Of a DNA stretch of 64,000 bases, positions 16,685 to 38,710 are shown in pieces. Each line of letters starts with the position of its first letter. Positions within the stretch are counted from its first letter, which is position 1. Under the pieces are notes generated by a model. It did no database searches, was not told the DNA's origin, and was given only the letters and a program-made list of their open reading frames with translations. The position numbers and the translations under genes are program-made. Source of the DNA: an uncultured Eubacteriales bacterium (GTDB taxonomy: Bacteria > Bacillota > Clostridia > Christensenellales > DTU072); the NCBI GenBank assembly GCA_949292905.1, contig CASFAV010000003.1:32050-96049 (forward strand), in the 5' to 3' direction.

Positions 16685-18325
16685 TTATTTTTCCTCTCCG
16701 CCTTCGCTTGCGGCGACTTCCGCCCCCGTGTTTTCGGCGTTAGCCGTTTCGGCGCTTTCCGTAAGATACGGATCCGCAAGTCCCGTTTCACCCTGCATGG
16801 CGCGTTCCTCGAGAGAGACGGAAAGCTCCTCCGGTATCTTGCCGTCCGCAGTCGCCGCGCGTATTTTGAGCACTTCCATTATCGATTTGTGTTTGGCTTC
16901 CGTCATATCCCAGAAGAAGTAGGGGATGGCAGCAAGCACAGCGCTTAAAAGTCCCACAGCCGCTATCCTGCTCGTGATACCGAAAAGCACTCCGTTGTCG
17001 TACAGGACGCTCGCGTCGTCTATGTATCCGAAAGACTTTTGGATAGCGGGTCCGATGAACGCCGTGCCCATGCTCGCGGCGGTAAGGAATATCGTTCCGA
17101 ATTGACCGAGGAAGCCTTCTATCCGGTCACCCGTTTCGTATTGCTGGAAGTCGTTGATCTCGGCTTGGCAGGCGGGACCGGTGACTATCTGGAAGCTGTT
17201 GAACAGAGTCAATACGTACACGCATACGATATGTACCCACGAATTCGGTATGAACAGCATAGGTATTGAGGCTGCGGCGATACCGAAATTCGATATCAGT
17301 ATCAGTTTCTTTTTGCCTATTTTGTTTATGACGAGAGGCGCAAGCAACATTCCGGGGACGGAAGCGGTGCCCAGAACGAGGGTGACCAACGAGTGCGTGA
17401 CCGAAGCGAGATCTCCCAAGCCGCGCGCCGTGAGATCGGGCGCGATGTCGTATGCCACATACCACAGCGCAAGGCCGTTCGCGGTGAGTTTCATTACTCC
17501 GAGAAGATTGGATATATTGAGTATCCAGAAATATTTATTTTTGAAGGTCTTGCGGCAACCGTCGATGAAGGTCTGCCTTTGACGGAACGTCGCGGGGACC
17601 ACGGTACGTTCCTTGACGCCGAGCGCGAGGAAGATCCCGAGCAGCATGAATACGCCCACCGTGAGCGGCAACGCCCATTCGTAAGCGCCTATGCTGTGCA
17701 CGCCGTCGCTCATGCTCCCGGGAGAGGAATAGAGCCTGTTGGCGATGACGGGGTAGAGGAAATTGGCGATCGTGGGTCCCAACGATATCGCGAACGTGCC
17801 TATCGACATGAGCTGTATGCGTTCGTTCATGTTAGGCGAAATGACCTGCGGGATACTGTTGAAAGCTATCGTGTAAAGTCTGTTGAGCAGGGACAGTATA
17901 TTGTATATTATCGTGAAAAGTATTACAAGCGCAAGATAATCGTCTATTTTGACTATCTGACCTATCGCGAAGAAACACGCCGTCATCGGAAGCGGAATGA
18001 TGAGAAGGTATGGTCTGAATTTTCCGAAGCGCGTTCGCGTGTTGTCTATTAGCCAGCTTACGAATGGCGTCGTCGCGATGGTGAAAAGCGACGAAGCGAT
18101 ACCGATAATGGCGACGTGATCGACGTTGATATTGCATGCGGCTGCGACGTACACGCCCTGCGTTATCGTAACGTAAGTCATCAGCACCGTTGCGCCCAGA
18201 CCTCCTATGCCGCCGATCAGATACATCACCCATTCTTTGAGAGTCATGCACATATTCGGCGCGGGCTTATCCCAGCGCGGCAATTTGTCTTTAAGAGATC
18301 TGAGTTTAGCTATAGTTGCGCCCAT
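16685..18325 (-). CDS. GPH-family (glycoside-pentoside-hexuronide:cation) symporter with acidic C-terminal tail
   Basis: I trimmed the track ORF to the ATG at 18325, preceded by GGGAGGG. It has about 12 TM helices and the GPH-like motif 'DNTRTRFGKFRPYLL'. It is a paralog of the 34277..37006 product. Confidence 0.8.
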   Translation of the reverse strand: MGATIAKLRSLKDKLPRWDKPAPNMCMTLKEWVMYLIGGIGGLGATVLMTYVTITQGVYVAAACNINVDHVAIIGIASSLFTIATTPFVSWLIDNTRTRFGKFRPYLLIIPLPMTACFFAIGQIVKIDDYLALVILFTIIYNILSLLNRLYTIAFNSIPQVISPNMNERIQLMSIGTFAISLGPTIANFLYPVIANRLYSSPGSMSDGVHSIGAYEWALPLTVGVFMLLGIFLALGVKERTVVPATFRQRQTFIDGCRKTFKNKYFWILNISNLLGVMKLTANGLALWYVAYDIAPDLTARGLGDLASVTHSLVTLVLGTASVPGMLLAPLVINKIGKKKLILISNFGIAAASIPMLFIPNSWVHIVCVYVLTLFNSFQIVTGPACQAEINDFQQYETGDRIEGFLGQFGTIFLTAASMGTAFIGPAIQKSFGYIDDASVLYDNGVLFGITSRIAAVGLLSAVLAAIPYFFWDMTEAKHKSIMEVLKIRAATADGKIPEELSVSLEERAMQGETGLADPYLTESAETANAENTGAEVAASEGGEEK

Positions 18326-18610
18326 ATACCCTCCCGTGCGCGCACGGCGCGTTCGCGTGCCGCGCATATATTGTAACCCCTGCGCACCGCGAAAGCAATA
18401 GCGAATTTATACCGTTTTGCGTTACGGCGTCGTTTCCGAACGAAATTACGCCTACGAGATAGTTTACGGAGAAAACACCGCTGTCGAGGTCGACGTGCTG
18501 AAGTAAGGACTTTATCAATATACCGCTTACGCCACCGACGTCTACGGCAACCGTTTTGCCGCGGGAACAGCCGTGATCGGCATAGACGACGGGCAAACCG
18601 CAACTCTTTG

Positions 18611-18629
18611 CGTAACGTCCGACGTTACC
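18611..18629. promoter_or_regulatory. Perfect 9-bp inverted repeat, candidate operator
   Basis: cgtaacgtc-c-gacgttacg lies in the leader upstream of the symporter gene. Confidence 0.3.
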
Positions 18630-18801
18630 GATTACAACGCTTAACCGTCAAAAGCAAATAAAAATAAAAAGCACTTATTTTTGCGTTCGGAAGGCTTGTT
18701 TTCTTGAGATTCACGATAAAGCAGTCGATCGATCGAACATGATAATGTGTAAAAATATATTGCACGCCTGAAGCGTGTAAAAAATTATTTTGCGAAAAGA
18801 C

Positions 18802-18830
18802 TTGAAATTTTTTTTAACCGGTGGTAAGAT
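18802..18830 (+). promoter_or_regulatory. Candidate sigma-70 promoter of the E1/E2/JAB operon
   Basis: TTGAAA (18802-18807), a 17-nt spacer, then TAAGAT (18825-18830). It would give a leader of about 390 nt. Confidence 0.35.
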
Positions 18831-19219
18831 TTATAACAAGGGGAAATATTTCGACAAGAAATTTTATTTTTCGTGAGCGAACGTCACAACAGAAACATCT
18901 TGCCGGAGAATTACCGTTTGAAAGGTTTGAATTTATAGACGCATAAGGCGCGTTTATGCCTTGAGCGGCTTTACTTCAGGTTTACTTCAAAAAAACTACA
19001 GTTTGCAAGCGCGGGAGTATTTTACGTCGTACATCCGTCGTCCGCCCGGGCATTACCGAGTACGTATATTGCCGGTCCGCCGATCGGGGGAACGTTTTAT
19101 GGGAGGTTTACTTTCTTGCGTTATCAAAGGGAAAGACTGCCCGATTTAATCAAAGCTTACCGTATTTTTCAATTTCCGAATAAGTAATTAAAAAAATTTT
19201 TTATAAAGGAGAAACAATT

Positions 19220-19549
19220 ATGAAAAGAAAAGTAGTACTCAACATCAGTGGTCAGAAAGCCATTTCCGAAGAGATCGAGATGGAAGCCGTCATCTATAAG
19301 GATCTTGCGCGCCTCGCGCCCAAATATCCCAATACTTTCGGCAGGGCAGACGACAGCAACTCTTACGCCTATAAGCTGATCAACGTCACGTTCGACAAGA
19401 ATCAGTCCACGGTCAAGCTAACCTGTAAAGACGGCGCCAGAATGGCGTTGGACATGATGCTCCCGTGGAATCAGGCGGAATCCGAGTTCGCAAAGATCAA
19501 CGGAGCCGCCGACGTCGAGCTCACGCTCGCAGGTACGGTAGGCGATTGA
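19220..19549 (+). CDS. Small protein, candidate ubiquitin-like modifier (C-terminus ...ELTLAGTVGD)
   Basis: This 109-aa protein is the first gene of the operon, with RBS AAGGAG. It shows an alternating beta/alpha pattern. The last strand-like segment, 'VELTLAGTVGD', has a penultimate Gly. The call rests on context only. Confidence 0.45.
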   Translation: MKRKVVLNISGQKAISEEIEMEAVIYKDLARLAPKYPNTFGRADDSNSYAYKLINVTFDKNQSTVKLTCKDGARMALDMMLPWNQAESEFAKINGAADVELTLAGTVGD

Positions 19550-19551
19550 AA

Positions 19552-19580
19552 GGCTGCGGGCTCGGGTAAAGCCCGCAGCC
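19552..19580 (+). promoter_or_regulatory. Intercistronic 11-bp GC-rich stem-loop
   Basis: ggctgcgggct-cgggtaa-agcccgcagcc lies 3 nt after the stop of the first gene. No T-run follows it. Confidence 0.6.
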
Positions 19581-19611
19581 CGCAATCGCAAAAGTCAGGA
19601 GGTGAAGATCT

Positions 19612-20211
19612 ATGACCGGTATGGACGTTTACAGAATGCTTGCAAATACGATCAACGCCGCGTTGGGGTCCCCGGGCAATGTGTCGCTCGAGAGGACCGT
19701 AGACCAGAAATGCAAGATAATCATCAGCGATATTCCCGTATATCCTTCGGGGAAAGGGGGGTATCTGGTAGTTTATTTTCCGCTTGATTTCGTAAAAGTC
19801 GCGGGAAACAACGATCTTATCTGCAGAGAGCTTACGCAAAACGAGATACGGATATTCAACGGCAGCAGACCGGATACGAAAAAAGCGCTCGCGCATACCA
19901 ACGTTTTCGAAGACGGGCATCCTTGCTTGGGCGGTGGCGGCAGTTTGGTAAGGATATCCGGCGTTTACGATTTCGCCGCGTATATAGTGGAGTCCGTTCT
20001 GCGCGTAAACATGACGGAGCAAGCTTTTTTAAGCCCTGCCACACGGAAATACGGCGCAACCGTCGAGCAGATGAGAGCGTTCAAGGTAAAGGTCAGGCGC
20101 ATGCTTGCCTCGAGTTTCCGCGAACGCGTTATGAATCAGGTCGATCATTCCCAGATATACAGATACGTTCGGGAATATTTCAACGATCAATATTGCGCTA
20201 ATATCGGGTGA
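19612..20211 (+). CDS. E2 (UBC)-like conjugating enzyme, divergent
   Basis: 199 aa. 'AHTNVFEDGHPCLGGGG' mirrors the eukaryotic E2 active-site pattern HPN-x(5-8)-G-x-I-C-L. The candidate catalytic residue is Cys105 (nt 19924-19926). It is preceded by 'YPSGKGGYLVVYFPLDF'. RBS AGGAGG. Confidence 0.65.
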   Translation: MTGMDVYRMLANTINAALGSPGNVSLERTVDQKCKIIISDIPVYPSGKGGYLVVYFPLDFVKVAGNNDLICRELTQNEIRIFNGSRPDTKKALAHTNVFEDGHPCLGGGGSLVRISGVYDFAAYIVESVLRVNMTEQAFLSPATRKYGATVEQMRAFKVKVRRMLASSFRERVMNQVDHSQIYRYVREYFNDQYCANIG

Positions 20212-20215
20212 CGTT

Positions 20216-21199
20216 ATGAAAAAAGTTATTATCGACACAAGGTTATACGAAGATATACTTACTTTCGGCGAAAAATACGATTCGTTTTGCGTTAAACTCA
20301 GCTGTTCGCTCGTAAAGCTGAACGAAAACGCGGAACTTTACGCTTGCGTGAGAGGCGGGGAAGGGATACCTTGTCCCGTCTATCTTGCCGACAGTCGTAT
20401 GCGCGCGGAAGAAAACCGGAACGCCGATGCGTGCGACAAATGGATCGAAGCGATACGTAGAGCGGATACCGCGGAGCTCAAGTTCTATGAGAAGACCGCA
20501 GACGGCGTCACCGGCGTAGAGGTCATCGCAGGCGAGCATACGCTCAGGATCGCCAAACCGTTAGCCGCGACAATGCGGCGACTGTCTACCGAGCGGAATA
20601 AAGTGATAATAATTTCGCACGAAAAGCGTTACGAAGAAGCGGATAAGGCGGAATTTCAGAGCCGTAGCGTGCTCTCGCTGGCCGAACTGGATTCTTCCGC
20701 GGTCGACATCGTATATTTCGAAGGAGCGGATAAGCTTTTGGAGAAATTGTTGTACGCCGGCTGCAGAGAGCTCAACGTATTCGTTCCCCATACCCGAAAC
20801 GACAAAAATATTGTCAAGACGCTCAGAAAATTAAGTAAAAAGGCTCCGTTCGGTAACCGTATCGCCGTTGCGATAGGTAACGATTACGAGCCCGGCAGTT
20901 GTTGTAAGCTCATAGTGGGACCGGCCGAAAGGATAGCCGGGTGTAACGCTTATAAAGTGTTCTTTTCCACGGCATACAATGGAGAACTCGGAAAGTTCGT
21001 CTACGTGGGGCAGAATACCGCAGACCTTATCCCGGAGCAAACGCGGTACCGCCTTAAGCCGCATACCGTTCATTACATAACTTCCGTCATGAGCGAACTC
21101 ATCTTGGCAGCGCTTTCGGAGAAGAAGTATTCGTCCGGTAGGCTGTATACGGTCAAAGCCAACGATCTTACCACAGAAACGATTTATAAGGAGGATTAA
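20216..21199 (+). CDS. Hypothetical protein, Rossmann-like; possibly a degenerate E1-like domain
   Basis: This 327-aa gene lies 4 nt after the E2 gene. 'KVIIISHEKRY' sits where an E1 would carry GxGxxG. 'VDIVYFEGADKLLEKLLYAGC' and the C-terminal 'HYITSVMSELILAALSEK' loosely parallel ThiF-fold segments. This is weak, by-eye similarity only. Confidence 0.3.
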   Translation: MKKVIIDTRLYEDILTFGEKYDSFCVKLSCSLVKLNENAELYACVRGGEGIPCPVYLADSRMRAEENRNADACDKWIEAIRRADTAELKFYEKTADGVTGVEVIAGEHTLRIAKPLAATMRRLSTERNKVIIISHEKRYEEADKAEFQSRSVLSLAELDSSAVDIVYFEGADKLLEKLLYAGCRELNVFVPHTRNDKNIVKTLRKLSKKAPFGNRIAVAIGNDYEPGSCCKLIVGPAERIAGCNAYKVFFSTAYNGELGKFVYVGQNTADLIPEQTRYRLKPHTVHYITSVMSELILAALSEKKYSSGRLYTVKANDLTTETIYKED

Positions 21200-21202
21200 A
21201 CC

Positions 21203-21865
21203 ATGTTCGTAATTGCCGTTCAGACGGAATTGAAGTCTCTTGCAAATTGTGCGGAGACTAACGTAATGACAAGAAGCGGTTATCAGATAGTGACGGATCA
21301 CGAAGTCTATTTCGTCAGCAAAGAACGCTTCCTCAATAAATACAAGGGTAATCTTTATATGGTGCCTTCAGCAAAAGACAGACTGCTTACTTTCGAAGAA
21401 GCGAGCGTATTAAGGAGCGCTATCGAAGAACTCGAGAGCGGTAAGCTGATCAAAGTCAAGGGGAAAAACCGCTACGAAAAGTTTGACAGGGACGGAGCCA
21501 ATTACAGTATATCGCTCCCGTCGTCCGACGTTGAGATAGAGGCTAAAGCCATACGTTGCGAATTCAGCGGAAACAACAGCAACCTCCGCGTCAAGACCGA
21601 GAATTCCGCGCTTGACGCGACCGCATCCAATTCGACCTTCGATATTTCGGCAAACGATACCGTAGCCACCATGTACGTTTCCAACTGCTTCATCGAGTTG
21701 AGCGGAGTGGGCTTAAAAGTGATGATCGTCGGAAACAACAATACCGTTAGCGGTATTACCGACGGGATCGAAGTTTTTTCGAGGGGCAGAAAAAACGAAT
21801 TCCGCAGAAAGTCGGAAGCCACGAGTGAGGATACCTCCAAACGCAATATCCGAGGAGGACGATAA
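21203..21865 (+). CDS. Hypothetical protein with beta-helix-like repeats and a basic disordered tail ending RGGR
   Basis: 220 aa with RBS AGGAGG 8 nt upstream. Residues ~115-195 are short N/S/T/V-rich repeats, bactofilin or beta-helix-like by eye. The tail is 'RKSEATSEDTSKRNIRGGR'. The stop overlaps the next ATG (TAATG). Confidence 0.5.
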   Translation: MFVIAVQTELKSLANCAETNVMTRSGYQIVTDHEVYFVSKERFLNKYKGNLYMVPSAKDRLLTFEEASVLRSAIEELESGKLIKVKGKNRYEKFDRDGANYSISLPSSDVEIEAKAIRCEFSGNNSNLRVKTENSALDATASNSTFDISANDTVATMYVSNCFIELSGVGLKVMIVGNNNTVSGITDGIEVFSRGRKNEFRRKSEATSEDTSKRNIRGGR

Positions 21866-23463
21866 TGGATAAAAAAGCCTTGGTTTATATGCCTAAATCC
21901 TGTTACGACAGAATGATAAAGCATATTTATATCGATCCTTCCAACGAGTGCGGCGGCTATTTGATAGGGAACCGCGTCGATCTCGACAACGCTTATGTCT
22001 TTTCCGTGAGGGAGCTGTACAGCGAGGTGCGTTTCGGGACGCAGAGCCGCTTCGAATTCAAGTTGGATTATACCTCGAACGCGCAGGAATTTACAAGGAA
22101 GTGGCAGAGAGCGCGTCGTTGCGACGATTTTCTGGTTGGGACGTATCATTCGCACGGGACGTTCGACGCATTCCACAGCAGCGTCGACGACGTATTCGCG
22201 AGACTTTTCAACCTTATGATCATTCTGAGTCCCGCGACCGGCAGGATAGAAGTATGGTATTGGTGCCTCGGGCTCGCGCAATGGTTCGAGGGAGAACTAA
22301 TAGTATACGACGACGAGGAAAATGACGGGAAACGGCGTCCCGTCTACGTCGAAGAAAGCGAGCTTTGTTCCGGTAAGGAAAAATTCCGTATGCGCATATT
22401 TCGCAGGAACAAAAAAGAGCTCGCGCCGCAAAAGAAGGTCCTGATAGTCGGCTGCGGAACTCTCGGCAACCTGCTCGCGGAGCATTTAATAGACGCTAGG
22501 CACAATGCCGAGATCACCTTCATCGACAGAGACCGTTACGAGACAGCCAATCTCCCGCGCAGTCCCGTTATAGACGCGACGGCGGTAGGCAGCCCCAAGG
22601 CGTTCGCGCTTGCCGAAGCGGTCGCGAGGGAAGCGCGAATGTCCTACGCCGTAAGAGGAATAATAGGGGACGTAAGAGAATTTTCGCTTGATTTTTTCGA
22701 GCAATTCGACGTAATAGTCACCCCTTTAGATAACCTCGAATGCAGGTATTACGTCAATTATTGCGCTACCGTTCTCAATAAAGCTTACGTCAATCTCGGT
22801 ACTTCGTATACGGGATTTAACGGACTGCCTTTATTCGGCGGAGACGTATTCTATAAGCCCTTCCGGGCTACGACGTGCCTGGATTGCTTTTACCTCCTGT
22901 ACAGAGGAAACGAGGAGATGCTCCGTAAGCGCGTGTCGTGCGGAGGCGCTCTGCCCGAGAAGGTGGTCCCGCAAGTCATCTCTTCGTCTATGCTGATAGC
23001 TTCGATCGCTTTCGTGTGTCTTAAGAAAGCTCTGAGGCACGACCGATCCACGGTGGCGACAGGCTATAACATAAACGACGTAAGCGCGTCCTACGACAGG
23101 TTTTTCAATGTCGCCCCCGTAAGGACGAGCGCCCGATGCAGCTTTGCCGCGGCACACGCTGAGAGCGACGGGATAGAGACTATAGAGATATCCGCCGGAA
23201 CGCATCTGCGTACGTTATATCGGCGCGTGCGCAAAATATTCAATGACAAAACCGAAGACAAAGTTTACGAGATAAACATGATGTCGTCGTGCCTTACGCA
23301 GGTCAAATACCGTACCGAGAATCCCATTCATTCGATAACCCTCGACAAAGAGAGTATCGGACGGATGCGCGACGTCATTCGCTACGATTATTTTCCAGCA
23401 GACCATATATACGCGGTCAGCTCCGCGGAGAACGTCAAATATATCCGTATAAAATTAAGATAA
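21865..23463 (+). CDS. JAB/JAMM isopeptidase fused to E1-like (ThiF/MoeB-fold) adenylating enzyme
   Basis: 532 aa. The JAMM motif is complete: Glu28 ('NECGG') and H95-S-H97-x7-S105-x2-D108 (nt 22147-22188). The E1 half has 'VLIVGCGTLGN' (GxGxxG, nt 22450-22467), 'FIDRDRYETANLPRS', 'PLDNLECRYYVNYC', the pair C338xxC341 and 'VSC359GG'. Confidence 0.85.
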   Translation: MDKKALVYMPKSCYDRMIKHIYIDPSNECGGYLIGNRVDLDNAYVFSVRELYSEVRFGTQSRFEFKLDYTSNAQEFTRKWQRARRCDDFLVGTYHSHGTFDAFHSSVDDVFARLFNLMIILSPATGRIEVWYWCLGLAQWFEGELIVYDDEENDGKRRPVYVEESELCSGKEKFRMRIFRRNKKELAPQKKVLIVGCGTLGNLLAEHLIDARHNAEITFIDRDRYETANLPRSPVIDATAVGSPKAFALAEAVAREARMSYAVRGIIGDVREFSLDFFEQFDVIVTPLDNLECRYYVNYCATVLNKAYVNLGTSYTGFNGLPLFGGDVFYKPFRATTCLDCFYLLYRGNEEMLRKRVSCGGALPEKVVPQVISSSMLIASIAFVCLKKALRHDRSTVATGYNINDVSASYDRFFNVAPVRTSARCSFAAAHAESDGIETIEISAGTHLRTLYRRVRKIFNDKTEDKVYEINMMSSCLTQVKYRTENPIHSITLDKESIGRMRDVIRYDYFPADHIYAVSSAENVKYIRIKLR

Positions 23464-23474
23464 GGAGGACTACA

Positions 23475-23987
23475 ATGAAATACGCAATACTCGTATGCAA
23501 TCAAAGAGATAGATTCCAATGCGCTGAATGTAATAAATTGACTTCCGCCGGCTATCAATTAGTCGACGATAACGAAACGAAGTTCGTTTGCAGTGAGTGT
23601 TATTCGGACTTTATGCGGCAGTATCCTCAACAAGGAAACAGCGTGAAGCAGCTTATTCCGGCCGAAGTGCTTTTTGCCGACGGGGACGTCGCGCGGAATA
23701 CCGTAGATGAAAGCGTCGAGTCCGTAGCGGAGGAAAGCTCCGGCTATATAGGAGAGCTCGTATCCGACGGTCACGGAGGGTGGCGCGAGCCCACGGCGGA
23801 AGAACTCGCGGCGATGAACGCGAGCGCGAACGCAGTTGACTACGGCGCTTCGTGTATAACTGAAGACACTCATGCCGTCAATATCCGTTATCGCTTCACT
23901 ACAGATAATAAACTCCAGATTATGTTACCCAAACGGTGTCGGATAGACGACAGAACCTACGAGATCGTCGTCACGACCACGGATTAA
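23475..23987 (+). CDS. Zinc-ribbon protein (4-Cys), candidate adaptor or E3-like factor
   Basis: I trimmed the track ORF to the ATG at 23475, preceded by AGGAGG. 170 aa with C16xxC19...C39xxC42 at the N-terminus, an acidic linker and a C-terminal beta-rich domain. Confidence 0.55.
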   Translation: MKYAILVCNQRDRFQCAECNKLTSAGYQLVDDNETKFVCSECYSDFMRQYPQQGNSVKQLIPAEVLFADGDVARNTVDESVESVAEESSGYIGELVSDGHGGWREPTAEELAAMNASANAVDYGASCITEDTHAVNIRYRFTTDNKLQIMLPKRCRIDDRTYEIVVTTTD

Positions 23988-23992
23988 AACGT

Positions 23993-24685
23993 ATGGACGA
24001 ACTCGAAAGATACAATAACCGTATCGACACGATCATTCCGCGCGAGACCGTGTTTCCGTGTTGCTTCGTGACTACGCCCAAGCAGATGTTTATGTCGCTT
24101 ATGGCGGGAGAAAGGGTGTGCTTTAAGGGATACAACGAAGCGGCGCGATATTATTTGCGGACTGCGGAAATATTCCGCAGTCTGTATGCGCCCGGTATGA
24201 GCGATTACGGCTTCGTCCTCGCGTTGAATAATTACATTGTGCGCAATATCCGTTACGATTACGACGTATTGACTAAAAAAACGCTTACGCCGGAAGATAT
24301 GGAAAGCTTCGAGATAGACGCTCCGCTTTTCAAGGGAAAGGGAGTATGCTCCGCCAAAAGCAAGTTTTTTTCGCTGCTGTGCGCGTTGGCCGATATCCGC
24401 ACGGTATTAGTGACGGGTTCTCTCAAGGGTTGTAAAGACGACTCGAGACACGCTTGGAACAAAGTGTTTCTGCAGAAGCCGGGCGATAGCGCGCCCAAAT
24501 GGTGGAATATCGACGTAACCAACAATCGCGTGCATCACCGTTTCGATCTCGGCTACAGAGATTATTTTCTTGTAACCGACAGAGAGATCATGCGCACGCA
24601 TTTTTTCATAGAATACGACGAAACCTTCGAATACAGGCAGATCAACCGTCTTGTCACCGGTTCTCTCGATTATCCTGCGGCGTGA
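23993..24685 (+). CDS. Transglutaminase-like cysteine protease-fold protein
   Basis: I trimmed the track ORF to the ATG at 23993. 230 aa with a Cys-His-Asp triad in the canonical spacing: 'GKGVC119SAKSKFF', 'SRH153AWNKV' and 'WWNID174VT'. Confidence 0.7.
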   Translation: MDELERYNNRIDTIIPRETVFPCCFVTTPKQMFMSLMAGERVCFKGYNEAARYYLRTAEIFRSLYAPGMSDYGFVLALNNYIVRNIRYDYDVLTKKTLTPEDMESFEIDAPLFKGKGVCSAKSKFFSLLCALADIRTVLVTGSLKGCKDDSRHAWNKVFLQKPGDSAPKWWNIDVTNNRVHHRFDLGYRDYFLVTDREIMRTHFFIEYDETFEYRQINRLVTGSLDYPAA

Positions 24686-24762
24686 ATCCTCGACTTCGGT
24701 CGTTGCGGAGCGGGCAAACTGAGTTTATATTGCGTAACACGATACCGTTTCGGTATAAGGGC

Positions 24763-24806
24763 GGCAAACGCGCGTAAATCATTATACGCGCGTTTGCCGT
24801 TTTTTC
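24763..24806 (+). terminator. Intrinsic terminator ending the seven-gene operon
   Basis: Hairpin ggcaaacgcgcgta/tacgcgcgtttgcc followed by tttttt. Confidence 0.85.
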
Positions 24807-24942
24807 GCGGAAGTGCGGAGAAATACCGCTATTGAAAGATACTTATTCGGTTGCGCTTGCGCGCGGGAGAGTGTAATATTAATGTATGTCGGTATGTCGG
24901 CGGCGAAAAAAGGAGTAATCGAAGTGATAGCGGAGGGCGTAA

Positions 24943-25398
24943 ATGATACTTGAAGCGGATCGTAGCAGCGTAGACGTTTTGACGGAGATGTCGTGCCTGT
25001 TATGGAAGGACGCGAAGCCCGCCGAACTGTACAAGGAGTACGACGGAGCGATGTCCTGCGGCGATAACGCCTTCTTTATCAAATATGCAAACGGCGAGGC
25101 GGCGGGATTTGCGCATTGCTCGTTGCGCAGAGAATACACGGAAGGAGTAACGAGCTCGCCTGCCGGCTATCTCGAAGCGGTGTTCGTGAAAGAGAAGTAC
25201 CGTCGCAAAGGTTTTGCGCGCGAACTCGTCGCGGCGGCGGAAGATTGGGCGCGCTCGAAAGGTTGCGCCGAATTCGCAAGCGATTGCGAAACCGTTAACG
25301 CGGCGTCGATAGCTTTCCATGAAGCGATCGGTTTTACCGAAGCCGGCAGGATAGTTTGCTTCGTCAAAAAACTCCGAGTCGAGCGTCTGCAGCATTGA
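24943..25398 (+). CDS. GNAT acetyltransferase, aminoglycoside 6'-N-acetyltransferase [AAC(6')-I]-like
   Basis: 151 aa. 'SSPAGYLEAVFVKEKYRRKGFARELVAAAEDWARSKGCAEFASDCETVNAASIAFHEAIGFTE' closely parallels the AAC(6')-Iy-type core as I recall it. RBS GGAGGG. Confidence 0.6.
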   Translation: MILEADRSSVDVLTEMSCLLWKDAKPAELYKEYDGAMSCGDNAFFIKYANGEAAGFAHCSLRREYTEGVTSSPAGYLEAVFVKEKYRRKGFARELVAAAEDWARSKGCAEFASDCETVNAASIAFHEAIGFTEAGRIVCFVKKLRVERLQH

Positions 25399-26878: not shown

Positions 26879-29647
26879 TTAAATTAGCGTGTATTTAGCT
26901 TTTCTAACATTAAACGCTTCTTTACCACCTTCAAGAATTTCACATATATGCCCTTGAATACCGGTTTGATTTAAAATACCGCTTTTAATTGAACCATCGT
27001 CATTTCTAATTACCATATTGTTTTCAATAGCTCCGGATCGATATTCAAATCGATAAGTTTCATTAGGACTATTTGTACCTCTTTGGTTGGCAACAATAAT
27101 TTCTTCCGAATCGGCCCCAACAACAATATTAGCATTATGCGTAACTACAATTATTTGCCTATCATATTTCTTTTGTCGCAGAAAATTAACTAGTTCATAG
27201 TAAATTGAACGATTATCTAAATCATCTTCAGGTTGATCTATTAATATTGGGCAATCGGCATCTGCCAAGTTAATCAGCAATTTAAGTAAAACTAATGCTT
27301 TTTTGCCTGGAGACATCGTTTGAATTTTATCGTTATCAAGTTCAATCGTGTAAATAATGTTATACCAATTGGATAATATAGCACGTAAAGCCTCTTCAAT
27401 AGTAACGCTTTTCTTCAACAATGATTTTCCATTAAATTCAAATAATGGATGAATCAATTTCTCTATAATGTCCTCGCTGATATCGGCAGGATCAGCATCT
27501 TCATAAAAAGCATAGATTGTTTTCAGTTTTCTGTTATCAAATAAATCTCTTATTTTAGCGTCAAAAGCTTCTAGCCTAAATGGTGCCGTTGCAAGAAAAG
27601 TCATGGAACTATCAAGATTTGTTGCTTTTTCGTTTACAAAACTCGCATATTTTTGATGTAATTCATCAAAAATTGCTAGTTTGTGAACTATGCTATTTAA
27701 TAGATTTTCAAAAACCTGTGTTTGTGTTTGTACTTGTAAGGTCAATGTTTCAGATGTCTTAAGTTTTCGTTCTTCCTCCAATAACAATTCATTTGTGATC
27801 TTTAACGCTTCAGTTTTTTCAAGTAATTGTTCTTTTGTTTCTATTTCAGTCTTAAGTGTATCTAATTCACTATTAATTTTTTCAATTTCAGCATTTAAGT
27901 TAATTATTAATTCTTGTCTGGCATTATTCCATTTTGTAGCTATTTCGTTTGTGAAACCAGATATAACAGCATCGACCTTATGCAAACTATCCGCAGACAA
28001 TTCCTCGGATTCATTTGACATTTTTACAACTAAACCTAAATTTGAAAGAAGTTTAATGTCATTATGTTTTGTTTGCAGCAATTTAGATAATGTTGCAAAT
28101 TGTGTTTTGCATTGGTCATATTTCGTTATGTCTTCTTCGCTTATTTGTAATAGTTTTGTTATTCGATCTCGTTCCTTTTGCAGTTTTGCAATCTCTTTTT
28201 TTATTGAATCTACGCTACCATTTTCCGTAAGTTGTTGAGAATACTGCATAAGTAATTCATGTGCTTTAACAGTGTCATATATTTCTTTGTCCAAATCAGT
28301 TTTTGTTGTCTCTAAATCGCGCTGAAACTGACCAAAGGCTTCTTTAATATTCTCATCTTGCAAAATAATATCCTGTATGATCTCATCAATTTCCGTCTTT
28401 TCTTCTTGATTGTCACTTAAACTATTTAAATAGGTTTGTGGTATATACACAATATTCTTCTTATCAGTACCGTCGCTTATTGTTCCATCTTTCCAATAAA
28501 CCCTCATATTTTGAATAGTAAAATCTTTTCCGCTGTATTTAAGCTTATATTGGTCACAATCAATAAGTCGTGCCATATTGTTGAGAATTATTGATTTCCC
28601 GGTAGATTTCCCTCCAATGAAACAAGTTAGATTAGGATTAAAAACAATTGGTGCAGGGGAAAATCTATCGTCGCTGATTGTGATTTTATCGATTACATTA
28701 TAGTCTCTCTTTTTTTCAGGATGCACATCGCAAATTTTAACACGTTCTTGAGGTTCATAAATGATTTGTTTGAGTCCTTCAAAAGTGCAATCAGCTTTTA
28801 TCCAACAATATCTATTATTATCAGGAGACAGAATGTCAGAATTTTTATGCGCATCACAACCATGTACACATGGCTTCAAACGCCCATATTTTTGAACGAT
28901 TTCTTCTTTAGTGAGAGAACCTTCTCCAAGAAAATATTTAATAGAGCTTTCTGTAGCGGAAAAAATTATATCAGCAAAATAACATAGATCATCTCTAATT
29001 ACTGTCAAATCTGAGTTTACATTAGGACGAGAAGGATTGCCTATTCCTGAAGCGCCATCGTTCGAACTATTAGAAACAGCAACTATTACATTATCTCTTA
29101 AATCTTTATCATCCTCCAGTATCTTTTTAAGATTTGATAAATCAACTACAAATTGTTCAATACCTTTTTTGTATGCTGCTTCGTCATTTAGGGTGGTGTC
29201 ATATAGCTGACCAAGTTTAATGAAATCATCTTTAACAGCGTGAAAAGTCTGCCCATTACTATGCTTAAACGTTAACTGACTGAAAAGTTTTACATCCAAT
29301 TGAGAAACAATCATCGGATTGCAAATGAAATGTATGTTTATTGCTGCTTTACTTGAAACGGGAGTAATACGCATTTCAATATTTGGCAATATCAGCTCAA
29401 ATTTATCAGTTATTCTACTATCAGATATAACTTTTCTATAGTTGTCAATAGAAAAGTAATCGGTTATTCCCAATACCGCAACTTTTTTAGTTGGATCTTC
29501 GGAATTGATATATAATAAAATGTCCTCGTAAAATTTGTCCCATTTTTCTTGAGGCGTTGATCCCACAAATTGATCATTCTTCTTTGTTTGTGGAGTGTGT
29601 ATATGTAAATCCCAACGTCTCCATTCAGAACCACGGCAAAAATCCAT
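26879..29647 (-). CDS. PHP-domain phosphoesterase fused to coiled-coil ABC/SMC-like ATPase
   Basis: 922 aa. The N-terminus has 'WDLHIHTPQT' and 'LGITDYFS' (PHP-type His motifs). Walker A is 'FIGGKSTGKS'. A ~300-aa heptad-rich insert follows. Walker B/D-loop is 'ILIDQPEDDLD' and the H-loop is 'IVVTHNANIVV'. It is the last gene of the AT-rich operon. It may correspond to what pipelines label TrlF-like ATPase, which I could not verify. Confidence 0.7.
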   Translation of the reverse strand: MDFCRGSEWRRWDLHIHTPQTKKNDQFVGSTPQEKWDKFYEDILLYINSEDPTKKVAVLGITDYFSIDNYRKVISDSRITDKFELILPNIEMRITPVSSKAAINIHFICNPMIVSQLDVKLFSQLTFKHSNGQTFHAVKDDFIKLGQLYDTTLNDEAAYKKGIEQFVVDLSNLKKILEDDKDLRDNVIVAVSNSSNDGASGIGNPSRPNVNSDLTVIRDDLCYFADIIFSATESSIKYFLGEGSLTKEEIVQKYGRLKPCVHGCDAHKNSDILSPDNNRYCWIKADCTFEGLKQIIYEPQERVKICDVHPEKKRDYNVIDKITISDDRFSPAPIVFNPNLTCFIGGKSTGKSIILNNMARLIDCDQYKLKYSGKDFTIQNMRVYWKDGTISDGTDKKNIVYIPQTYLNSLSDNQEEKTEIDEIIQDIILQDENIKEAFGQFQRDLETTKTDLDKEIYDTVKAHELLMQYSQQLTENGSVDSIKKEIAKLQKERDRITKLLQISEEDITKYDQCKTQFATLSKLLQTKHNDIKLLSNLGLVVKMSNESEELSADSLHKVDAVISGFTNEIATKWNNARQELIINLNAEIEKINSELDTLKTEIETKEQLLEKTEALKITNELLLEEERKLKTSETLTLQVQTQTQVFENLLNSIVHKLAIFDELHQKYASFVNEKATNLDSSMTFLATAPFRLEAFDAKIRDLFDNRKLKTIYAFYEDADPADISEDIIEKLIHPLFEFNGKSLLKKSVTIEEALRAILSNWYNIIYTIELDNDKIQTMSPGKKALVLLKLLINLADADCPILIDQPEDDLDNRSIYYELVNFLRQKKYDRQIIVVTHNANIVVGADSEEIIVANQRGTNSPNETYRFEYRSGAIENNMVIRNDDGSIKSGILNQTGIQGHICEILEGGKEAFNVRKAKYTLI

Positions 29648-29677
29648 ACGAAGTATCTCCTTGGTGTATAGTGAGGT

Positions 29678-31264
29678 TTATTGATGTAAAAGGTCTACTA
29701 ATCGTTCATTGCTTGCTATGTCTTTTATAAACTCTTCGATCGCGTATGTTAGTATATCCACATTATACTGATATTTTGAATATCCTGCCATATACTTTGT
29801 GTCAGCATGGATAGCGGGCGCAACTAATATGGAAAACACAATTTTATCGGGATATTTAGTGACTGCCTCCTGTAAATGTCGTGTGATTGCCGGCATTTCC
29901 ATAGTTGCTTGAGTCCTTGCCGTAATCAAAGTTACTTCGACGAGTGGATTGCAATCCGTATCGAAGCACTCAATATCGGCTAGCCCACCCGATGCTGTGA
30001 AGGTTGGTAAGCCTTCGTCATCAACATGATAATTAGGACAAACCGTCAATCCTTCAAAGTTCTGTTTTAATGCGATACTGGTTAAGAATTCAAATCTTGT
30101 GGGTTTGTCAATAATCCTCAGTACGGGATTACGGCTTTCACCTCTTTTGCTACAAACGATAAGCAATTCGTTGAAAATTTCCTGTTTATCATAGTTTGTC
30201 GCCCACTCATTGAGGGTTCTTGTTCTAACATCATTGATGTTCTCTTCCTGAATGGTGGTAGTGGCCAGAATATGAGCGTCAATCGAGCCCATATACCTAA
30301 AATAATCTTCTTTGGAGGCATATCGGGTATAAGTACTATAATTTTCTAATATGTAGTTAATTTTATCTGCTTCAAATTGGTTAAAATCCAAGAAGCGACC
30401 ATTACCTCTGAGAGAGATTATACCTGTAATACGCATCTTGCGTATAAATTCATCAACAGCTTCGCCTGTAATCTGCTCAATTTTAAAGCGTTTCTTTTTA
30501 TCTTCACCCGCACCTAACAGTTGTAAGCAGTCATCATAAATGACTTCATCGCTATAATTGTAGCCATACTGAGCGCGTAATTCTTTGATTGTGCGGTAAA
30601 GCCGTTCAGCATCGTTATCAGGCCAGCAAATTATGAGCGATAATTCGCTTCTTAATATACCTGCATCGTTTTCGTTAGGATCTTCCTTCAAAAGTTTTAT
30701 AACCTGAAGCAAGAGAACGAGCGGGACATTATCATTTGCATTCTTTCTGAATGGATTGCTTGTCTGATACTTCATCAGTGCATTCAAAAAGACATTCTGT
30801 ATCTTTGAATCGTTGGCGGGAACTTCATTAAAAGCATCTATCAGCATGTGTCCCGTTTGGGAGATTATAATTTGCTTACCCATTTCATAATAGATAAAGC
30901 CGAACTCCATAGACAGCTTGTACCAAGTGTCAAATCGAGAATCCCATCCTTTTTCAAAGCCAGCTTCTTTATGGTCTTGCGGGCTATTTGCTATAATGTC
31001 TTCAACTTGTTCACGAGTAAAAGAAAGCTCATCACTTTTATATATCCTTTTATATTCTGGCACTTTCATTTCATACTTTTCGGTATAGTACAATTTTGCC
31101 ATAATTAAATTAACTGCAACCTCGTGAATAATATCGCTCGTTAAAACATGACCTTCATACGGTAAAATACAATTTAAGAACGCCGCTATACGAGCAGGGT
31201 TACGCATGGTGGTAGAGAATGAAAGTGGTTTGTATTCTTTTCGTCTTTCTTTTGCCATAGACAC
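29678..31264 (-). CDS. AlwI/BstNBI-family type II(S) restriction endonuclease
   Basis: 528 aa. The N-terminus 'LSFSTTMRNPARIAAFLNCILPYEG' and the catalytic region 'ASGGLADIECF...LVEVTLITARTQATMEMPAITRHL' parallel the N.BstNBI/AlwI-family segments I recall ('AAGNQPDMEIIY...LGEVTTSKGATQFKMESEPVTRHYL'). It lies 1 nt downstream of two MTase genes. Confidence 0.65.
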   Translation of the reverse strand: MSMAKERRKEYKPLSFSTTMRNPARIAAFLNCILPYEGHVLTSDIIHEVAVNLIMAKLYYTEKYEMKVPEYKRIYKSDELSFTREQVEDIIANSPQDHKEAGFEKGWDSRFDTWYKLSMEFGFIYYEMGKQIIISQTGHMLIDAFNEVPANDSKIQNVFLNALMKYQTSNPFRKNANDNVPLVLLLQVIKLLKEDPNENDAGILRSELSLIICWPDNDAERLYRTIKELRAQYGYNYSDEVIYDDCLQLLGAGEDKKKRFKIEQITGEAVDEFIRKMRITGIISLRGNGRFLDFNQFEADKINYILENYSTYTRYASKEDYFRYMGSIDAHILATTTIQEENINDVRTRTLNEWATNYDKQEIFNELLIVCSKRGESRNPVLRIIDKPTRFEFLTSIALKQNFEGLTVCPNYHVDDEGLPTFTASGGLADIECFDTDCNPLVEVTLITARTQATMEMPAITRHLQEAVTKYPDKIVFSILVAPAIHADTKYMAGYSKYQYNVDILTYAIEEFIKDIASNERLVDLLHQ

Positions 31265-31265
31265 C

Positions 31266-32186
31266 TCAATAATTTTTTACAAGAACTTCGTAAGTATCCT
31301 TTTCGCTATTGTCATTAAAACTTATATAATTGCTTTGAATACGCACGATATTATATTTCTGTGCCCAATAATTGAACGTACCGTTATATTTCCTTCTGTG
31401 CCATAGCACGTTTGACACGGCAAAACGTATATGCCGTTCGTTTAATTCATCGAGGACTTTAATAAGACGCATTTCGCTATCTTCGTTCCACAACTTGTTA
31501 TATTCACTGAATGTAATAAGATATGGCGGATCAAGATATACAAAATCTTTTTCAGTAAGTTCAAGAGAATTGAGGAAATCTTCAAAATCCATACTGAATA
31601 GAGAGATGTCTTTATCTTTTACATACTCAAAATATGAGTTAAGTGCGTCGACCACATTCTCGTTGAAATCTACATTCCCTACGGGAAGATTAAAGTCGCC
31701 CTTCCCATTAAAACGCAACATACGGTTAAATCCATAAATCAGTAACAGATAAAGGAGCATCATATCTGTCTTATCGGCATTGAAATCTGTTCTTAATTGC
31801 GTATAAGCTTCTTTATTGTATTTGGCAAAATAAGTTTTAGGGAATTGTGTGCGCAATTCTTTCGGCACAGTCTTTCCCATGTATGTGGCAGATAGGGCAT
31901 ACTTGTTTATGATTGTATTGATACTATCCCAGAACTTGACTTGATTCTTACTATAAGCAATAAGAAACTTATGCAATGAAATCATATATGAATCAATGTC
32001 ATTAAGGATATATTGATTTGCCTTAGTATTTAAGAAAACGCTGCCGCCCCCACAAAAAGGCTCAACAAACTTGTCAATATCTTTAGGGAAATTATCTTTT
32101 AGCTGCGATAGCAACTTAAATTTATCTCCAACGTAGAAAAATGGTGAACGACGAAACTCTGTTTTTACTGTTACATTCTTTTTCAT
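31266..32186 (-). CDS. D12-class (Dam-like) N6-adenine DNA methyltransferase
   Basis: 306 aa with 'FYVGDKFKL', motif I 'FVEPFCGGGSVFLN' and motif IV 'VYLDPPY'. Confidence 0.85.
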   Translation of the reverse strand: MKKNVTVKTEFRRSPFFYVGDKFKLLSQLKDNFPKDIDKFVEPFCGGGSVFLNTKANQYILNDIDSYMISLHKFLIAYSKNQVKFWDSINTIINKYALSATYMGKTVPKELRTQFPKTYFAKYNKEAYTQLRTDFNADKTDMMLLYLLLIYGFNRMLRFNGKGDFNLPVGNVDFNENVVDALNSYFEYVKDKDISLFSMDFEDFLNSLELTEKDFVYLDPPYLITFSEYNKLWNEDSEMRLIKVLDELNERHIRFAVSNVLWHRRKYNGTFNYWAQKYNIVRIQSNYISFNDNSEKDTYEVLVKNY

Positions 32187-32187
32187 T

Positions 32188-33216
32188 TTAATTAACCTTA
32201 ACTAAAAAGATAAATTCTTTGTGTTCCGTAAAATCTGTTTTGCCGGCATTAAAAAAGGAATGTTCCTTTTCGAAACAAGTCAGTTCACCTTTGGTTTTCA
32301 GCACATCTTTTATATTTTCAAGCGTCATCTTGTTTCGTGATGAGGTGCTTTTTGAGGCATAGGTGTTATTATAAGAAACAACTATATACTTGCATTGCAA
32401 ATCACGTATTAAATCAGCAAAAGCTTGGAGGGCACCGCTTCGGCAATACTCGCTCATATTCTCAGGTTCTGGCTTCAACGCTTCACCATATAGTTTTGGC
32501 TTTTTCCAAGTTGTCAAGTTTTCTAAGACATGATAAAAACGGCTGTATTGTCTTGAATTATAAGGCGGATCAATATAAACGATATCAACGCTCAAAGATT
32601 TTGCTAAAATATTTGCGTCTTCACGGTGAATTTCGATTTCTGCCGTTGTGGCGTATGGGGAAATTAGGTCAAACTTGAAAGTATCAGGTATATTATGACC
32701 TTTTATATAAGCGTCATAATGTCCGACAGTGTTTGCCGCTTTATCTGCAGAGTATAAAAGTGAGGCGATCAAAATAGCCCGTTCTTTTTCATTAACATCA
32801 TTTATAGAATCAATGACATCTCTTATTGCTCCAATATGTAACGCATCGGCATAAGAGAAAAACTTATTACTATAATTTATAGAAGCGTAGTTATCTTTAA
32901 TAGATGAGGTATCAATATTTTGAAAATTGGTTTTATAGTTATTTATCTTATTGACATCGAACGGTTCTTGCAGAAAGAACGCCTTATAGATAATTTCATT
33001 TGAATAAAGGAAGTCGTTGATGACGACCTTTTGCATATTTTTTATTGCGTGTTGAGCTATTATCCCTGTGCCGGCAAAAATATCACAAAAAGAACTTCCC
33101 GTACAGTGACTATTTATTAAATCAAAAATCCAATCAGCAAGCTTAAATTTACTTCCTGTATATCGCCTATTCCATATTTCAAAAGACATGCTTCTTACGC
33201 TCATATTATTATCCAA
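32188..33216 (-). CDS. D12-class N6-adenine DNA methyltransferase (second MTase)
   Basis: 342 aa with 'RRYTGSKFKL', motif I 'CDIFAGTGII' and motif IV 'VYIDPPYNSRQY'. Confidence 0.85.
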   Translation of the reverse strand: MDNNMSVRSMSFEIWNRRYTGSKFKLADWIFDLINSHCTGSSFCDIFAGTGIIAQHAIKNMQKVVINDFLYSNEIIYKAFFLQEPFDVNKINNYKTNFQNIDTSSIKDNYASINYSNKFFSYADALHIGAIRDVIDSINDVNEKERAILIASLLYSADKAANTVGHYDAYIKGHNIPDTFKFDLISPYATTAEIEIHREDANILAKSLSVDIVYIDPPYNSRQYSRFYHVLENLTTWKKPKLYGEALKPEPENMSEYCRSGALQAFADLIRDLQCKYIVVSYNNTYASKSTSSRNKMTLENIKDVLKTKGELTCFEKEHSFFNAGKTDFTEHKEFIFLVKVN

Positions 33217-38018: not shown

Positions 38019-38710
38019 ATAAAACCCCCGGATAGTCCGGGGGTACAGTAGAGCTTTAGCGGTGAGCAGAAAAAAATCCTCCATATGCCAGAATGTGAAG
38101 AGTAGTCCGCAAAACTAACACACATAAAGCAAGGAGGATTTTTACAAATGAAAGATGTAAACAGTTTATCACACACGTCTTGGAATTGCAAATATCATAT
38201 GGTGTTTGCTCCGAAGTATCGTCGGAAAGTGTTCTATGGGAGCAAAAGACGGGAAATAGGAGCAATTCTAAGACAGTTGTGTGAATGGAAGAATGTGGAA
38301 ATAATAGAGACGGAGGTGTGTCCGGATCATATACACATGCTGGTGGCAATCCCTCCCAAAATCTCTGTTGCGAGTTTCGTAGGATTTTTGAAAGGGAAAA
38401 GTTCGTTGTTAAATTATCAAAAATGGGCGAATATGAAGTATAAATATCGCAACAGAGAGTTTTGGTGCCGTGGATATTATGTAGACACGGTGGGCAAGAA
38501 TACAACGAAAATAAAAGAATATATCGCCAACCAACTGAAAGAAGATAAGTTAACGGAACAAATGACAATAACGGAACTATTGGATCCGTTCAAACAATAG
38601 AGTTGGCGAATCGCAAAAGGCGGACTATGGGTAAGCGATTTCGCTAAGCTAGTATCAGAGGGCTATGCCCTCAAATTAAAAACCACCAGCTAGGCTGGTG
38701 GATTTTTTTA
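38019..38710 (+). mobile_element. IS200-type insertion sequence (IS200/IS605 family, tnpA only)
   Basis: The element is about 690 bp. A left-end hairpin lies at 38025-38043 and a right-end hairpin at 38683-38701. It encloses a Y1 HUH transposase gene. Confidence 0.8.
38148..38600 (+). CDS. tnpA: IS200/IS605-family Y1 (HUH) transposase
   Basis: 150 aa with 'KYHMVFAPKYRRKVF', 'PDHIHMLVAIPPK' (HUH) and 'FWCRGYYVDTVG' (catalytic Tyr region). Confidence 0.9.
   Translation: MKDVNSLSHTSWNCKYHMVFAPKYRRKVFYGSKRREIGAILRQLCEWKNVEIIETEVCPDHIHMLVAIPPKISVASFVGFLKGKSSLLNYQKWANMKYKYRNREFWCRGYYVDTVGKNTTKIKEYIANQLKEDKLTEQMTITELLDPFKQ

Follow-up and report, generated by a model that had tools for sequence, protein, structure and literature searches.

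The window, by which we mean the whole stretch of 64,000 nucleotides analysed here, contains a compact 5.5-kb operon of seven same-strand genes whose first gene, ORF1, very probably encodes the ubiquitin-like modifier (Ubl) of a bacterial protein-conjugation system. An initial annotation had proposed ORF1 as the Ubl of the system, and this is well supported by a predicted beta-grasp fold, an invariant terminal glycine followed by a variable tail, and the presence of JAB, E1, and E2-like genes alongside it. Directly behind ORF1 lies a hairpin that is very likely a selected mRNA element. The best explanation of the whole, a Ubl cascade combined with a hairpin that yields the tag in excess, is one that we hold to be reasonably probable. 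The main novelty would be the operon architecture, above all its predicted two-chain E1. The features of the operon are as follows.

18802-18830, forward strand: promoter-like site found by a scan (TTGAAA-17-TAAGAT with a TG extension), some 390 nt ahead of the ORF1 start.
19220-19549, forward strand: ORF1, 109 aa, predicted single beta-grasp ubiquitin-like protein with the putative precursor end L-A-G-x-V-G108 plus one residue.
19542-19589, forward strand: longer version of the hairpin, in which an outer 7-bp stem (19542-19548/19583-19589) takes in the final ORF1 codons and the stop codon; overlooked in the initial annotation.
19552-19580, forward strand: intercistronic hairpin, an 11-bp GC-rich stem without a U-tract, with the core GGC(U/A)(G/A)C and compensatory changes in relatives.
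19597-19605, forward strand: strong Shine-Dalgarno sequence of ORF2 (AGGAGGTGA), outside the conserved 11-bp stem.
19612-20211, forward strand: ORF2, 199 aa, E2-like, with invariant H95-T-N97 and G-H-P-C105-L-G; weak fold support.
20216-21199, forward strand: ORF3, 327 aa, no family match; may be an inactive adenylation subunit encoded on its own, with ORF5 as its predicted binding partner.
21203-21865, forward strand: ORF4, 220 aa, no family match; position kept in the related locus L003.
21865-23463, forward strand: ORF5, 532 aa, JAB peptidase fused to a ThiF-type E1.
23475-23987, forward strand: ORF6, 170 aa, putative N-terminal zinc finger (C-x2-C...C-x2-C), also present in L003; weak matches only.
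23993-24685, forward strand: ORF7, transglutaminase-like (Transglut_core, E 1.4e-10), a candidate for the role of deconjugase or acyl transferase.
24762-24805, forward strand: hairpin and T6 run 3' of ORF7, a canonical-looking operon terminator unlike the internal hairpin.

Successive genes are separated by 62, 4, 3, -1, 11, and 5 nt, so only ORF1 is set apart from the others, as had been observed previously. The same seven genes occur in the same order in the metagenome locus L003, where the first gap is likewise the sole long one, and ORF1 and ORF2 are found together in L004-L006. Upstream of the operon, an AT-rich stretch of about 850 nt (18376-19219) holds no called gene; the gene that precedes ORF1 lies 110 nt away in L003 and 45 nt away in L004. 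The promoter scan performed at chance level overall (8 sites found against 6.5 +/- 2.6 expected), and the 390-nt leader shows no unusual degree of folding (z 0.43). Comparison of 18300-25000 with Rfam gave no family match of note, the 3 chance matches all being below the gathering score.

The translation of 19220-19549 is 109 residues long and ends in DVELTLAGTVGD, a glycine with one further residue, just as the initial annotation read it. Structure prediction had been suggested there as a check for a beta-grasp, and the AlphaFold2 model (12-row alignment; pLDDT 79.6, pTM 0.75) has this fold, with the order strand-strand-helix-(two short helices)-strand-strand-helix-strand, the lowest confidence at residues 91-109, and ubiquitin-like domains as most of its top matches. 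The top Foldseek match is the C-terminal domain of Ring1B (E 9.6e-4, TM 0.55), followed by the tubulin cofactor E ubiquitin-like domain. With VIA-align, the model matches SHANK3 SPN (Z 8.1) and YukD (Z 7.9, rmsd 2.2, 77 aligned); a Z of at least 5 is reached by 192 of 48161 chains, and the best 50 of these 192 are largely ubiquitin-fold domains. Each Z-score of about 8 is middling, and it is the agreement across matches that carries weight, pointing to the fold rather than to function. YukD, RA, and FERM domains share the fold yet are not conjugated.

The C-terminus adds a second line of evidence. L103, A104, G105, V107, and G108 are invariant in all 12 aligned family members, and among 27 ORF1-family proteins, 12 of which form a single 90% cluster, the conserved glycine is followed by 0, 1, 2, or 3 residues in 4, 12, 10, and 1 proteins, respectively. 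An unchanging glycine followed by a freely varying tail is what a precursor typically shows. The final Asp of ORF1 is strain-specific: in the 90% cluster, 11 of 12 proteins terminate in Gly-Ala, and position 19545 is a C in 4/4 aligned sequencing runs, which replaces the Asp109 codon with an Ala codon.

The ORF1 family is small. A homologue search recovered 11 proteins of 108-112 aa with 52-97% identity, and a profile search of 1.84 billion representatives gave 5 matches, namely one protein already in the set, two new relatives (P0025 and P0026), and two long repetitive proteins (P0027 and P0028), which were dropped as false matches before the 27-protein tail count. P0025 (119 aa) matches ORF1 relatives over its last 74 residues and has an unrelated, hydrophobic N-terminus; it is probably a chimeric assembly or a fusion. 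Searches of Pfam, NCBIfam, PADLOC, and PDB profiles returned no match for the family, and an atlas search with ORF1 gave no usable match.

ORF5 carries the clearest enzymatic domains of the operon, with matches over the cut-offs to ThiF (E 3.6e-22) and Prok-JAB (E 2.1e-12); both domains are present in 16/16 homologues. Residues E28, H95, H97, S105, and D108, the glycine motif G196-x-G-x-x-G, R232, the pair C338-x2-C341, C359, C425, and H431 are invariant in 15/15 sequences. These motifs have functional roles in the JAB and E1 families, and C359 would, from its position, be the catalytic cysteine. The protein consists of the JAB and a single adenylation domain, with about 27 residues from C341 to the next helix. 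Its closest PDB entries by sequence are UBA6, UBA1, UBA3, and UBA2 (E 2e-10 to 4e-9), with MoeB (1.3e-7) and Cap2 (2.7e-5) further down. Beyond the zinc ligands, the protein continues at its C-terminus for about 95 conserved residues (residues ~432-532, window 23160-23463). An impression gained by eye, that this C-terminus is the ubiquitin-fold domain of canonical E1s, a domain missing from BilD, found no support in a profile comparison with ORF1, for which the alignments are shallow.

ORF2 is likely to be the E2. Its H95-T-N97 and G-H-P-C105-L-G motifs are invariant in 14/14 sequences, and we take the H95-T-N97...C105 arrangement to resemble the E2 signature. The model has a pLDDT below 50 at residues 92-112, around the active site; its best structural match is Cap2, whose Z of 5.2 is equalled by that of an unrelated capping protein, and its fold matches to Cap2, BubB, and UBC proteins are weak (Foldseek E 0.06 or worse). 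Since the model is poor at the active site and the matches are weak, the E2 assignment is no more than likely. Profile searches of Pfam, PDB, PADLOC, and NCBIfam gave no match for ORF2.

The weak fold support for ORF2 as an E2 bears on a very improbable alternative, in which ORF1 is a sulfur or amino-acid carrier of the ThiS/MoaD/CysO kind that the JAB matures and the E1 activates for use in biosynthesis rather than for conjugation to proteins. ThiS, MoaD, and CysO are carrier families, and JAB-matured carriers with ThiF-type activators exist, which gives this alternative a precedent. However, ORF1 ends in x-V-G without a Gly-Gly, 12 family members show no match to a ThiS profile, and the domain search of the operon turned up neither a rhodanese nor a sulfur-pathway domain. 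Contig C14 also carries a ThiF and a ThiS of its own, with 2 kb between them, the latter being the one ThiS match in the genome. Further, the E1 of ORF5 favours protein-conjugating E1s over MoeB (E 2e-10 against 1.3e-7), and the invariant His-x-Asn...Cys motif of ORF2 argues for conjugation as well. A third ThiF-family match in the genome, at G000:C4:204733-205413, has one internal TAA stop in the matched stretch.

The preferred reading of ORF1 as a conjugated modifier raises the question of how the E1 is built. Predicted as a complex with full-length ORF5, ORF3 gives an ipSAE of 0.82 (0.82, 0.86, and 0.82 in the individual runs) against 0.00 for the best of three controls, suggesting that the E1 consists of two chains. 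In a benchmark, the score mark was reached by 116/157 solved pairs and by 2/215 mismatched pairs. At least 48% of the contacts agree between runs, with partner pLDDT of 61-74, and the 88-109 confident contacts are centred on ORF5 helix 369-387 and ORF3 helix 281-298, presumably the position of the E1 dimer helices. In the three-row alignment of ORF3, K137, Y139, F147, Q148, and R150 are invariant (3/3), and Y139, F147, and R150 lie in the predicted interface. On this modelling, the E1 is fairly likely to be a two-chain pseudo-dimer, with ORF5 as the active half and ORF3 as the inactive half.

It is somewhat unlikely, by comparison, that ORF3 is no E1 subunit and that ORF5 forms a homodimeric JAB-E1 like BubCD, the predicted contact having been borrowed from E1 dimer structures. 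The passing score may indeed reflect likeness to solved E1 dimers, and hhalign found no profile homology between ORF3 and ORF5, for both of which the alignments are shallow. F174 and R177 of ORF5 are also kept; they precede the nucleotide-binding loop, in the region that holds a trans-acting Arg in homodimeric E1s. The language-model atlas places ORF3 next to BilD_N/ThiF clusters at 0.82-0.85, scores that serve as leads only; even so, the best 10 atlas matches of ORF3 that have a family all share the BilD_N/ThiF family or clan (10/10), and together with the score of 0.82, the 88-109 confident contacts, and the 0.00 of all three controls they weigh against this alternative. Two ideas formed by eye, that the N-terminus of ORF3 is an inactive JAB and that ORF3 is a detectable paralogue of ORF5, had no support in profile comparison; like that on the ubiquitin-fold end of ORF5, these are weak negatives because the alignments are shallow.

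With ORF5 and ORF3 as the predicted E1, the anatomy of the genes suggests the following cascade. The JAB of ORF5 would, with good probability, remove the residue or residues after Gly108. The E1 would then adenylate Gly108 and form a thioester on Cys359, and the tag would pass to Cys105 of ORF2 and from there to the target. ORF6 and ORF4 are possible adaptors, and the JAB, ORF7, or both may reverse the tagging. A more specific picture is tentative and has a less than even chance: a thioester cascade like that of NEDD8 or SUMO, with a two-chain E1 (a separate inactive subunit and a JAB-fused active subunit, perhaps with a ubiquitin-fold end), a Cys E2, ORF6 as a zinc-finger E3, a transglutaminase-fold deconjugase, and a stem-loop that sets the tag in excess.

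Bacterial ubiquitination has only recently been demonstrated, for CBASS Cap2, Bil, and Bub. In type I/II Bil systems (BilA Ubl, BilB E2, BilC JAB, BilD E1; 10.1101/2023.09.26.559546, 10.1101/2023.09.04.556158), as in this operon, the Ubl gene is first and the E2 gene second, and both stand alone. Shared as well are a terminal glycine with an optional short overhang, Cys-based E1 and E2 enzymes, and an inactive plus an active adenylation half, of which the ORF3 half is predicted. BilA is cut between Gly97 and Ala98 (10.1101/2023.09.26.559546), and overhangs of 2-9 residues are given for 12 BilA homologues (10.1101/2023.09.04.556158). Unlike the stand-alone BilC, the JAB is fused to the E1 here, and there are seven genes rather than the four of the Ubl-E2-DUB-E1 set, ORF4, ORF6, and ORF7 being extra. 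The inactive half is predicted to be the separate ORF3, whereas BilD is a single IAD-AAD-CYS chain; the ~27-residue crossover of ORF5 leaves no room for a helical CYS domain, and ORF5 has its conserved ~95-residue C-terminal extension. Nor do ORF1 and ORF2 show sequence similarity to any library model.

Type I Bub (6E.1/DUF6527; BubAB, BubCD, BubE) resembles the operon in its N-terminal JAB fused to an E1 domain and in a JAB that matures the Ubl by cutting after a conserved glycine, which is predicted here (PMC11601596). However, the Bub Ubl and E2 are fused, whereas they are separate in the window and in 4/4 related loci (PMC11601596), and Bub uses Tyr (E1) and Ser (E2) oxyesters, whereas C359 (15/15) and C105 (14/14) are invariant here (PMC11601596, PMC11601603). 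The Bub E1 is homodimeric and accompanied by a DUF6527 protease (PMC11601596), in contrast to the E1 here, which is predicted to be heteromeric. None of the seven operon proteins has a Pfam match to DUF6527 at E <=1 in a library that may lack the model, and the Cys spacing of ORF6 differs from the signature given in PMC1779556. Because neither the E1 and JAB layout of Bil nor the Ubl-E2 fusion and Tyr/Ser chemistry of Bub is present, the operon, although it would operate in a similar way, belongs to neither system, and it matches none of the types 6a-6e as PMC1779556 describes them.

The eukaryotic E1s NAE1-UBA3 (NEDD8) and SAE1-UBA2 (SUMO) have separate inactive and active subunits, as predicted here (PMC12355090, PMC12687455). 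They also carry zinc-binding motifs in the active subunit and figure near the top of the PDB entries that ORF5 matches by sequence, and their Ubl is made as a precursor. The present operon differs from them in its JAB fusion, its lack of a helical Cys domain, and a Ubl that ends in x-V-G instead of G-G. A literature search of open papers, with passages of three reviews (PMC12355090, PMC11354881, PMC12687455), found heterodimeric E1s described only in eukaryotes. Bacterial E1s in the literature examined are homodimers or one IAD-AAD chain (PMC11601596, 10.1101/2023.09.26.559546).

The junction between ORF1 and ORF2 holds the second element of the proposal. An 11-bp GC stem without a T-run had been reported at 19552-19580, and it is present as described: 19552-19562 pairs with 19570-19580 through 9 G-C and 2 U-A pairs around a 7-nt loop, followed by CGCAAUCGCAAA without a U-run. 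The region 19540-19620 folds at -40.1 kcal/mol (z -5.30), which is equalled by 0/200 shuffles, and the gap alone at -27.6 kcal/mol (z -3.21; 4/300 shuffles). The outer 7-bp stem is probably incidental and strain-specific, since the C at 19545 in 4/4 runs disrupts one of its pairs, barring a compensating change. A search of the genome that allowed up to 5 mismatches gave 1 match, so the hairpin is no repeat element.

A hairpin is found in 4/4 related loci, with a gap of 62-64 nt, z-scores of -3.0 to -5.4, and 23-31 nt from the stem to the ORF2 start; ORF1 fourfold sites differ between loci at 57-81%. Inside the core GGC(U/A)(G/A)C, a U-A pair changes to A-U and a G-C pair to A-U or G-U, and the surrounding positions vary freely yet stay paired, in a motif-anchored table whose hand-chosen anchor leans towards structure. 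An automatic DNA alignment of the loci placed the stems out of register. RNAalifold on a trimmed alignment found two-sided changes at 4 of 10 pairs with an unfavourable covariation term (+0.76), which amounts to no formal covariation support. As the loci are kin, the five of them show retention of the hairpin and not five origins.

The initial annotation held that the hairpin is not a terminator, which for the canonical type is supported by a census of hairpins at gene ends, based on crude in-house gene calls (1424 genes). At convergent gene ends, 141/194 have a hairpin of -15 kcal/mol or better, of which 104 are followed by at least 5 U and 8 by at most 2 U. Same-strand gaps of 30-100 nt hold such a hairpin in 26/237 cases, and 13 of these 26, the ORF1 hairpin among them, have at most 2 U (13/26 against 8/141, Fisher p 1.4e-7). 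The organism thus uses U-tract terminators, and the ORF1 hairpin falls in a distinct, common class. The 8 nt 3' of the stem contain 1, 2, 3, 1, and 2 U in the five loci, with 1 U in the window, below the 5 U of a canonical intrinsic terminator, and the terminator/promoter scan of the window does not list the hairpin. Stable, placed inside the operon, poor in U, and lacking a poly(U) tail, it is of the type that the rule in PMC8219983 classes as a stabiliser (SRPS).

Low-U stem-loops of this kind have clostridial precedents. In Ruminiclostridium cellulolyticum, intergenic stem-loops of the cip-cel operon set the cellulosome stoichiometry (PMC4423207, PMC10311766) and stabilise processed transcripts at both ends (PMC10311766), and low-U internal terminators raise substrate-binding proteins in clostridia (PMC9045158). 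These internal terminators have long GC stems and low U, some types with hardly any U-rich tract, and transcription was not halted by a stem-loop that lacks the U-rich tail (PMC9045158); the low-U rule (SLOFE) classes such stems as stabilisers (PMC8219983). The likeness of the ORF1 hairpin to the SRPS stem-loops and internal terminators in the cip-cel and ABC importer operons of R. cellulolyticum is that of a GC-rich, low-U stem-loop directly behind the gene whose product is required in the largest number (PMC4423207, PMC10311766, PMC9045158, PMC8219983). A literature search found no report of such a stem-loop in ubiquitin-like operons.

By these precedents, the hairpin would let transcription reach the enzyme genes while marking and protecting the 3' end after ORF1, either by processing with an exonuclease block or by partial termination. 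We consider it probable, to about the same degree as the explanation as a whole, that it yields more of the consumed tag than of the catalytic enzymes. An alternative in which the hairpin is not a decay barrier but terminates leakily inside the operon or acts as a pause site (low-U intrinsic, or NusA/NusG- or Rho-assisted) is unlikely; it would have a similar outcome, more Ubl, by a mechanism other than the one first proposed. The genome encodes Rho as well as RNase Y, and the low U and long GC stems of the clostridial internal terminators (PMC9045158) fit such a site. Besides the ORF1 hairpin, 21 U-poor hairpins were listed for the genome, and 20 of them had their flanks annotated. One lies between an ABC substrate-binding gene and its ATPase, the classic case of a product made in excess; many separate unrelated genes, several of them downstream of hpf, rpoC, clpB, or rplS, and at such places they may be no more than 3' ends. 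These flanks fit a 3' end behind an abundant gene and do not separate stabilisers from weak terminators. Against leaky termination, a stem-loop without a U-rich tail let transcription continue in PMC9045158, tails of 1-3 U in 8 nt make all five loci "stabilisers" under the SLOFE rule (PMC8219983), and the six downstream genes need read-through, the scan having found no promoter-like site in the gap.

Quite unlikely, too, is a functional hairpin that does not raise the Ubl over the enzymes and instead insulates the ORF2 ribosome-binding site or shields a processed mRNA 5' end. The conserved gap (62-64 nt) and stem-to-start distance (23-31 nt) would suit such a role, as would the stabilisation of cip-cel transcripts at both ends (PMC10311766) and the weak codon evidence of excess. 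On the other side, the spaced junction sits only behind the component that is consumed stoichiometrically, in L003 too, and the codon adaptation (CAI) of ORF1 is the highest of the seven genes, at the 63rd-71st percentile against the 3rd-31st for the other six.

The proposal of a stabiliser that produces the Ubl in excess therefore stands in part: the hairpin is under selection and has clostridial precedent, but the codon signal is weak, with the ORF1 value reached by 564 of 20000 codon resamples and a C/U test at Phe, Tyr, Ile, and Asn that is not significant in 5/5 loci. The Shine-Dalgarno sequence is equally strong in ORF2. Four of six sequencing runs were aligned, all of them in the form of contigs; one (X4) is recorded as RNA, and two of the four are flagged as probably DNA. 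The 8 X4 pieces listed lie in 19318-24648, with no depth in bins outside 19209-24927, in a data set whose contig depth cannot rank genes, several of whose pieces diverge by ~10% and come from another organism, and which may include DNA; it was given no weight as evidence. The piece that covers the hairpin is not counted as bridging because it ends 29 nt past the stem. An excess of tag over enzymes would fit the logic of the system, in which the tag is consumed and enzymes turn over.

The operon appears to be rare, and to occur in gut bacteria. It was found in 0/80 other genomes of the family, 0/400 of the order, and 0/398 scored genomes of the class (2 more being unscored), from which we take its distribution to be patchy; searches of viral contigs, GTDB pattern scans, plasmids, and phages did not find it either. 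A low-GC (32-40%) island (window 26879-33216) starts 2.2 kb from the operon. It encodes a TrlF-family AAA ATPase (over the cut-off, with a weak Ppl match), a probable restriction enzyme of 528 aa without an NCBIfam match, a Dam-family methylase, and a second methylase-like gene. Elsewhere in the window, a 150-aa ORF (38148-38600) resembles an IS200/IS605 TnpA transposase. In L003 (4922-7796), a ClpP-like gene lies 2.4 kb upstream of the operon and a VirD4-like gene directly next to the operon, both below family cut-offs, and in L004 (18-794) a Lon-like AAA gene, also below its cut-off, adjoins the operon upstream. Protease parts near the operon, at two loci only, could hint at mobility or at a link to proteolysis. 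Given the analogy to Bil, which acts against phages by conjugation to tail fibres, the patchy distribution, and the nearby low-GC island, our best guess for the purpose is anti-phage or stress defence, for which we see an even chance by this likeness.

The hairpin by itself is of an ordinary kind, and it allows a test of whether the ratio of tag to enzymes is tuned at the mRNA level in bacterial Ubl operons. If the proposed E1 is correct, the operon would represent a third architecture beside Bil and Bub and contain a bacterial heterodimeric E1. Among bacterial enzymes, such an E1 of two chains would come nearest to those that activate NEDD8 and SUMO, and it would bear on the origin of canonical E1s.
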